NCBI RefSeq assembly: GCF_003334785.1
Contig: NZ_QOWV01000021.1
Source of the DNA: Escherichia coli
GTDB lineage: Bacteria > Pseudomonadota > Gammaproteobacteria > Enterobacterales > Enterobacteriaceae
Length of the DNA: 60,030 bases
Strand: one strand, 5' to 3'
A program made the position numbers and the translations under genes. Shown in pieces: positions 1-692 of this stretch (position 1 is its first letter; every line of letters begins with the position of its first letter). The notes beneath the pieces were generated by a model. The model was given only the letters and a program-made list of their open reading frames with translations. It had not been told where the DNA came from and ran no database searches.

Positions 1-96
1 TTATCGTGAGAGTAATTCATCGGCACGTTAAATCATATCAGGCGTAATACCACAACCCTTAAGTTAGCGCTTATGGGATTACTCCCCGCACAACGG

Positions 97-249
97 CTAC
101 TTCTTCGGTTCGTAAGCGAGAACAGCCTTAAACTCAATATTACGTTCCTTCACCGTAAACTCACACAGCGAGTCTCCGACCAGAAGCGTAAATCCCAGCA
201 CCGTTAAACACAGCACTATGACTGCCGCAAGGGCATATTTCGTCAGCAT
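97..249 (-). CDS. hokE: Hok-family type I toxin (50 aa small membrane peptide)
   Basis: C-terminal 50 codons of track ORF 97..348 translate to [50 protein letters not shown], a typical Hok/Gef peptide with one TM helix and conserved Cys; ATG confirmed at 247-249 (complement). Confidence 0.8.
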
Positions 250-692
250 GTTTATATTGCCTCCATGCGAAGAAGGGACTACCATCCAAATTGTTCGGGT
301 TTGGAGTGGCAGCCCCAGGGTTGATAGAAATATCTCCTGGGGCTTCATCTTTCCAGACCTCAGAGTAAACCTGAAACCGGAAAGCTTCAGGCACCCGCCG
401 TTATCTTACCCTTCCTCAACAAAATAGCTGTTTATTTATACAGTGAGTCCTGTTTCGGACTTCTCACTCCTCATTTAATCAACTGAAGCTGAACCCGTTT
501 TTTTCTGCATGACTCAATCGTCAAAATTCTTCGCCACCAGTCAGCACTGCCATAACTTGTCACATTGCAAAAGTAGCCAAATTGCTTCAGGCACCATCAG
601 TTCACCATCACCAAAAAAAAGAAACATTCCAGAACTTCCGCATCTCGCCCAGCCGCTCCGACTTCTATACTGAATAGAAAACGCCAACATAA

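Follow-up and report, generated by a model that had tools for sequence, protein, structure and literature searches.

The out-of-frame reading frame over the IS186-disrupted hokE/sokE locus of Escherichia coli is probably a leftover and not a canonical mok

The locus at the left end of the window, i.e. the whole stretch of 60,030 nucleotides of Escherichia coli DNA that was analysed, is the already-described hokE/sokE toxin-antitoxin locus of strain K-12, with IS186 located just behind the toxin gene. The explanation that probably accounts for it is that of a known locus, disrupted by IS186 and devoid of a canonical mok, in which the out-of-frame ORF at 161..394 is a leftover. The identity of the locus is secure, since the sequence is identical to that of the curated K-12 locus: positions 1-720 are 100% identical to K-12, as well as to many other strains, and the gene order is entD, IS186/IS421 transposase, hokE and ybdK. 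A hok-type type I toxin locus had been proposed from the letters of the sequence, and on this point the Pfam HOK_GEF match, the Rfam leader model and the naming of the toxin gene as hokE by both the curated and the PGAP annotations all agree. HOK_GEF (PF01848) matches residues 38-79 of an 83-aa upstream-extended ORF with an E of 4e-7, these residues being the Hok part, and the NCBIfam Hok models also match the hokE product. In the curated K-12 record IS186B spans 608007..609351 and extends leftwards from window position 78, where PGAP annotates an IS421/IS186 transposase at the left end of the window. Either the curated K-12 annotation or the literature already covers hokE, sokE, the LexA box and the insertion of IS186B. 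The features of the locus are listed in Table 1.

Table 1. Features of the hokE/sokE locus in window coordinates.
Feature	Position	Strand	Basis or remark
IS186B right end (IS4 family)	1..~75		curated boundary at 78; transposase gene runs past the window edge
Target-site duplication copy GGGATTACTCC, 11 nt	75..85		reverse complement of GGAGTAATCCC; half of the split 3' hairpin
hokE CDS, 50 aa	97..249	minus	ORF listing, PGAP, Pfam HOK_GEF, curated K-12 record (mapped to 249..97)
Upstream ORF in hok frame, 83 aa, ATG start	97..348	minus	absent from the sequence-only reading
dcb-like box CGAAGAAG	100..107	minus	predicted partner of ucb-like CUUCUUCG at 268..275; MFE folds only
Out-of-frame ORF, 77 aa, GTG start	161..394	minus	phase +1, as in R1 mok and mokB
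hokE mRNA leader, 147 nt	250..396	minus	Rfam RF01794 match, folds, covarying 5'/3' complementarity
sokE promoter (TTGCCT 257-262, 17-nt spacer, TACCAT 280-285)	257..285	plus	
hokE Shine-Dalgarno GGAGG, 9 nt before the AUG	260..264	minus	direct sequence reading; invariant in a 7-copy hokE alignment
sokE (b4835), 60 nt	293..352	plus	curated K-12 record; inside the hokE leader
tac/fbi-partner element GGGUGCCU, mRNA 5' end	389..396	minus	
Putative hokE promoter -10 hexamer TAAGAT	403..408	minus	sequence comparison
LexA box CTGTATAAATAAACAG, CTGT-N8-ACAG	428..443	minus	overlaps the -35 region of the hokE promoter

The hokE leader is recognized by the Rfam model RF01794, which is named "sok", yet represents the hok mRNA in its sense orientation and ends at the hok AUG; the model aligns over its full length (1-157) to 396..241 of the minus strand with a score of 84.4 bits (E 3e-19), the gathering cut-off being 59 bits. 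This end-to-end alignment therefore places the 5' end of the transcript at about position 396 (GGGUGCCUGAAGC). The putative TAAGAT hexamer occupies a position homologous to that of TATAAT in an R1-like locus and of TATTAT in an IncF locus, the two plasmid hok loci used for comparison, and as a -10 element it would fit a transcript start at about 396. A generic promoter and terminator scan of positions 1-720 gave no match, the sokE and hokE promoters both scoring 8/12, below threshold; they were placed by homology and by the curated 5' end of sokE. No other match to the LexA box pattern occurs in the window, where chance alone would give 0, and the box is kept in all Escherichia hokE copies. 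A 2024 study counts hokE among the LexA-box genes, with an HI of 4.9, but did not see it induced by AZT; an SOS-induced hokE transcript has been reported elsewhere. LexA control of hokE is thus supported by the unique box and by the literature, although one study saw no induction. Minimum free energy folds of three IS-free mRNAs also pair CUUCUUCG, located upstream of the hok Shine-Dalgarno sequence, with CGAAGAAG at the end of the hok coding region.

A separate observation concerns codon 46 of HokE, where a UACG motif (Tyr46 UAC followed by G) is found at 112..114 of the minus strand; according to a recent preprint, A-to-I editing of hokE mRNA by TadA turns Tyr46 into Cys, and a Cys29-Cys46 disulfide could then form in HokE.

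An antisense RNA on the plus strand had been expected at about 250-400, together with its own promoter, and both expectations were borne out by the curated sokE gene and by the TTGCCT-17-TACCAT promoter, which precedes the curated sokE 5' end by 7 nt and is invariant in all Escherichia copies. In the predicted fold of SokE, a long hairpin at 312..343 is preceded by a 5' tail of 11-14 unpaired nucleotides and followed by a U-rich tail; the free energy is -24.6 kcal/mol and the z-score -2.8. On the basis of its position and of this fold, SokE appears to be a cis-encoded RNA with its own promoter and a predicted hairpin/U-tail terminator inside the leader. Following the R1 paradigm, it would pair with leader nucleotides ~45-104 and would silence or destabilise the hokE mRNA. 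Two miRNA families reported by Rfam on the plus-strand hairpin (E 0.3-0.7, far under gathering) were regarded as chance matches to a hairpin.

Variation within the locus, in the form of SNPs and an indel, is greatest in the complement of the SokE 5' tail, at about 293..310, and the leader flanking it is invariant; this variability would fit a diversification of Sok/target specificity between paralogous copies. In many E. coli strains hokE/sokE is present twice, in tandem, in the interval from entD to ybdK (L002:1020-1675; L004:1523-2178), with a median of 2 places per genome, and the copies differ mainly in the region targeted by the Sok 5' tail.

An IS element downstream of hokE had also been suspected, and it was found to be IS186: its end occupies the left edge of the window, a target-site duplication is present and other strains carry the empty site. 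Alignments of hokE copies, seven at first and 15 later, located the insertion 22 nt after the hokE stop by comparison with IS-free alleles, from which the window departs at 74/75, inside a GCGGGGAG(U/C)AAUCCCCGC hairpin. On the far side of IS186 in K-12, 1.3 kb away, the duplicated GGAGTAATCCC is followed by the continuation that holds the fold-back element fbi. In IS-free alleles the GC hairpin is intact and is followed by ...GGUAAGGCACCUGC... and by a terminator-like hairpin, and the alignments show that these alleles carry the downstream GGCACCUGC element. The K-12-type junction is found in 1908 of 5426 complete E. coli genomes.

The fold-back elements gave a divided result. No fbi was detected in the 96 nt that follow the hokE stop in the window, where the best helix was at chance level (332/500 shuffles), so that the partner of the mRNA 5' end is absent there, but the pairing is predicted in IS-free alleles of the same locus. 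In the minimum free energy folds of the three IS-free mRNAs, nucleotides 1-8 (GGGUGCCU) pair with the fbi sequence AGGCACCU, 53 nt after the stop. Across the hok family, 5'/3' complementarity is found at +52..+64 after the stop and it covaries, with the pairs GGGUGCCU/AGGCACCU, GGCGCUU/AAGCGCC, GGGUGUCUG/CAGACACCC and GGGUGCUUGA/UCAAGCACCC. Taken one sequence at a time, this complementarity, a 7-9-bp helix, is not significant versus shuffles; it is the conserved position and the covariation across loci, and not single-sequence statistics, that argue for the fold-back. IS186 splits the 3' GC hairpin and moves fbi 1.3 kb from the hokE transcript. By analogy with R1, in IS-free alleles the pairing of the mRNA 5' end with fbi would keep the full-length mRNA inert; in K-12, both the control by end pairing and the 3' hairpin would be lost through the insertion.

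Two further insertions were noted. At L005:1345-1540 IS186 lies in the same target hairpin in the orientation opposite to that of K-12, which implies independent IS186 insertions at a hot spot, the GGGG-N-CCCC hairpin. E. coli G4/9 (L056:2700-4400) carries, besides the downstream IS186, an IS150 in the hok leader/sokE hairpin (window ~318..321), which is a further decay of the hokE locus.

The sequence-only reading had also proposed that the 77-aa ORF, which starts upstream of hokE and ends inside it, is mok-like. Both ORFs exist as described and the overlapping one is in the mok phase; a usable start, a similarity to Mok and a conservation of the frame were instead not found. The ORF ends at a TGA formed by the hok codons Cys29 (TGT) and Glu30 (GAG), and hok loci with TGC at Cys29 extend that frame to the end of hok. 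Its GTG at 394 corresponds to nucleotides 3-5 of the hok mRNA and it has no room for a Shine-Dalgarno sequence, since the mRNA 5' end is at 396; the only other start in this frame is a UUG at -40, which lacks a Shine-Dalgarno sequence. A canonical mok starts at -51..-60, where GAGG-N5-8-ATG follows directly on the Sok-target hairpin; hokE reads GGGGCUGCCACUCC at this site, and a start codon is missing there from all 13 Escherichia hokE copies. The 77-aa product matched no Pfam family even at E <= 10 and no NCBIfam model, and in BLASTP it resembled neither MokB nor the R1-like Mok; the latter, as a positive control (L006), matched DUF5431 (PF17496) with an E of 4e-20. Curated K-12 annotation contains mokB and mokC and no mokE, and nothing relevant on a mokE was found in the literature covered.

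These data render it very improbable that the ORF is a functional mokE, the translation of which would enable that of hokE as in plasmid R1. Such a role would be consistent with its phase, the same as that of R1-type mok (-58) and of the curated mokB, with a frame that in most Escherichia copies meets no stop between the mRNA 5' end and a point 88 nt inside hok, and with alleles carrying one additional C, in which an AUG at position 348 opens this frame for 62 codons. However, besides the lack of a suitable start codon in the window, of a start at the canonical site, of Mok/DUF5431 similarity and of a curated mokE, no more than 25 nt of the frame are open in Klebsiella-type hokE relatives (L013-L015), and an open frame of this kind lies within chance, since 11% of dinucleotide shuffles leave a given phase of the 147-nt leader free of stops. 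The ORF is thus read as a remnant mok frame without a credible start in this allele, and as delimited it is most likely untranslated.

A comparison of 50 hok loci, which comprised 45 loci taken from one genome per species (44 analysable), two plasmid loci and the E. coli paralogues, was used to tabulate every upstream start whose ORF reaches the hok Shine-Dalgarno sequence. Most of the 37 loci outside the Escherichia hokE group have a start preceded by a Shine-Dalgarno sequence at -51..-60, just 3' of the GAGG arm of the hairpin: about 21 start at -55/-58 in phase 1 (R1 type and mokB), about 10 at -51/-57/-60 in phase 0 (mokC, the IncF locus and the Klebsiella hokE-like locus) and one at -56 in phase 2. 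In the leader alignment, GAGG-N5-8-ATG is present in the hokC, hokB, R1-like, IncF and Klebsiella loci, whereas hokE reads GGGGCTGCCACTCC at that place. Hence, in other hok loci it is the overlapping frame that is not conserved, while a leader ORF does exist: in the hok family the position of its start and its reach to the hok Shine-Dalgarno sequence are conserved, and frame and peptide are not. This pattern agrees with experiments on R1, in which mok translation is needed only as far as the hok Shine-Dalgarno sequence (PMC9841398), and with the statement of a recent survey (bioRxiv 10.1101/2025.08.07.668861) that identifying Mok is "not trivial".

The hok/sok/mok system of plasmid R1 (parB; R1-like loci L006 and L030-L047) shares with hokE a Hok/Gef toxin, the RF01794 leader, an antisense gene inside the leader with its promoter over the hok Shine-Dalgarno region, the hairpin acting as Sok terminator and target, and an mRNA 5' end complementary to an fbi element located ~55-60 nt after the stop, the latter lost to IS186 in the window. 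The phase of the ORF at 161..394 is the R1 mok phase; R1-type loci, however, have GAGG-N-AUG at -58 and a DUF5431 product, whereas hokE has no start there. Unlike R1, hokE is chromosomal, it has a LexA box and, in this window, its fbi is lost to IS186. The K-12 hokC (gef)/mokC/sokC locus is also chromosomal, with IS186A 20 bp after the toxin stop, and hokE has the same architecture, with 22 bp; at hokC, IS186A disrupts fbi and normal mRNA processing (PMC3562002). In hokC a curated mokC starts in frame from -57 and is overlapped by the 5' end of sokC, while hokE has neither a curated mok nor a start there. K-12 mokB, an out-of-frame ORF (-58) with its stop inside hokB, has the very geometry that the sequence-only reading described; it possesses a proper start adjoining the sokB 5' end, whereas the hokE ORF lacks that start and any similarity to MokB. 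In the hokE-like locus of Klebsiella pneumoniae ATCC 13883 (L013) Hok is 82% identical and the positions of leader, hairpin and Sok promoter are homologous; here a leader ORF with a canonical GAGG-N7-AUG opens at -51 in the hok frame, a feature missing from Escherichia hokE.

Klebsiella-type hokE relatives (L014, L015 and also L013) contain in addition a short upstream ORF in phase 2 that begins with an AUG at -32 and terminates over the start codon of hok (AUGCUGA), a termination-reinitiation geometry unlike both mok types. R1-type and IncF-type hok loci were also encountered on short contigs labelled as Gram-positive, i.e. Streptomyces morookaense (L021, L047) and gut Firmicutes/Actinobacteria MAGs (L022, L027, L046); the loci in these assemblies are almost certainly a contamination by enterobacterial plasmid DNA.

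The only upstream AUG of hokE is that at position 348 (-99), with a GAGG 9 nt upstream, at 358..361; both are invariant in all 13 Escherichia hokE copies. The frame that it opens depends on a 1-nt indel at 334/335. The K-12 allele, which reads CCCCAGGA-GAUAUU and occurs in 4613 genomes, places AUG-348 in the hok frame with 83 codons, while the +C allele, found in 2736 genomes, places it in the mok phase with 62 codons; many genomes carry both types as tandem copies. A second indel, located in the target of the Sok 5' tail at about position 296, generates a phase-2 ORF (L008, L010) with a UAG stop 31 nt before hok; this early-stop haplotype was seen in up to 353 records, counts by exact match giving upper and lower bounds only. 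In E. whittamii the second indel and the +C together restore phase 0. Overall, the ORF from AUG-348 reaches hok in 11 of 13 Escherichia copies, in either phase. Since the frame is switched by two indels, there is therefore no conserved leader peptide.

These properties raise the alternative of a relocated leader ORF, which would start at AUG-348, ~40 nt further upstream than usual and 5' of the Sok-target hairpin, and which would need to run only to the hok Shine-Dalgarno sequence, as established for mok in R1 (PMC9841398). This alternative is regarded as unlikely, although less so than a functional mokE. It draws on the invariance of the AUG and of its GAGG, on the coverage of AUG-348 by the 3' end of SokE, on the reach of the ORF to hok and on the in-frame leader ORFs known in mokC, the IncF locus L007 and Klebsiella L013. 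Moreover, when the mRNA truncated at its 3' end is refolded in silico, the mean unpaired probability of that GAGG rises from 0.03 to 0.23, a partial exposure that would fit a relocated mok start. Conversely, the GAGG and a GGAAAG form the 3' arm of a conserved 5' stem found in all hok leaders, so that their conservation may be structural, and AUG-348 adjoins a stable 8-10-bp GC hairpin, which an initiating ribosome must melt. Natural E. coli phase-2 alleles stop 31 nt before hok, and two of the three phases are open anyway, the 11/13 being near what indels alone would give. On the other side, a leader free of stops in both phase 0 and phase 1, as observed here, arises in only 0.7% of shuffles, and this, together with the 11 of 13 copies in which hok is reached, speaks against the absence of a mok and may indicate some selection for read-through from AUG-348. 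The reading of hokE as a locus without a canonical mok is nevertheless preferred, because the canonical Shine-Dalgarno sequence and AUG are absent and because AUG-348 feeds the hok frame here.

PGAP also annotates an 89-aa "hypothetical protein" on the plus strand at 218..486 (L003:1644-1913), antisense to the whole hok leader. As a real gene it was rejected: it has no NCBIfam match, it is flagged as frameshifted in K-12 by the 334/335 indel and it is probably a spurious ORF of a stop-poor structured region.

As far as the function of the locus is concerned, overexpression of HokE is reported to be toxic, and the chromosomal hok loci tested in the same study did not mediate PSK (bioRxiv 10.1101/2025.08.07.668861). 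The present analysis carries little weight as a discovery; its useful outcome is a correction on mokE annotation, in that geometry by itself is not a sufficient basis for giving the overlapping ORF this name. If the leader ORF were indeed relocated to AUG-348, K-12-type alleles (~4600 genomes) would make an 83-aa, N-terminally extended HokE, similarly to the in-frame mokC, and +C alleles (~2700 genomes) would make a 62-aa out-of-frame leader peptide (Mok); the GAGG Shine-Dalgarno sequence would be exposed when the 5' end refolds, and a common 1-nt indel would toggle the phase. This would represent a natural demonstration that it is the transit of the ribosome, and not the Mok peptide, that matters, and the frame-flipping indel present in thousands of E. 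coli genomes provides a small and cheap test case for this idea.
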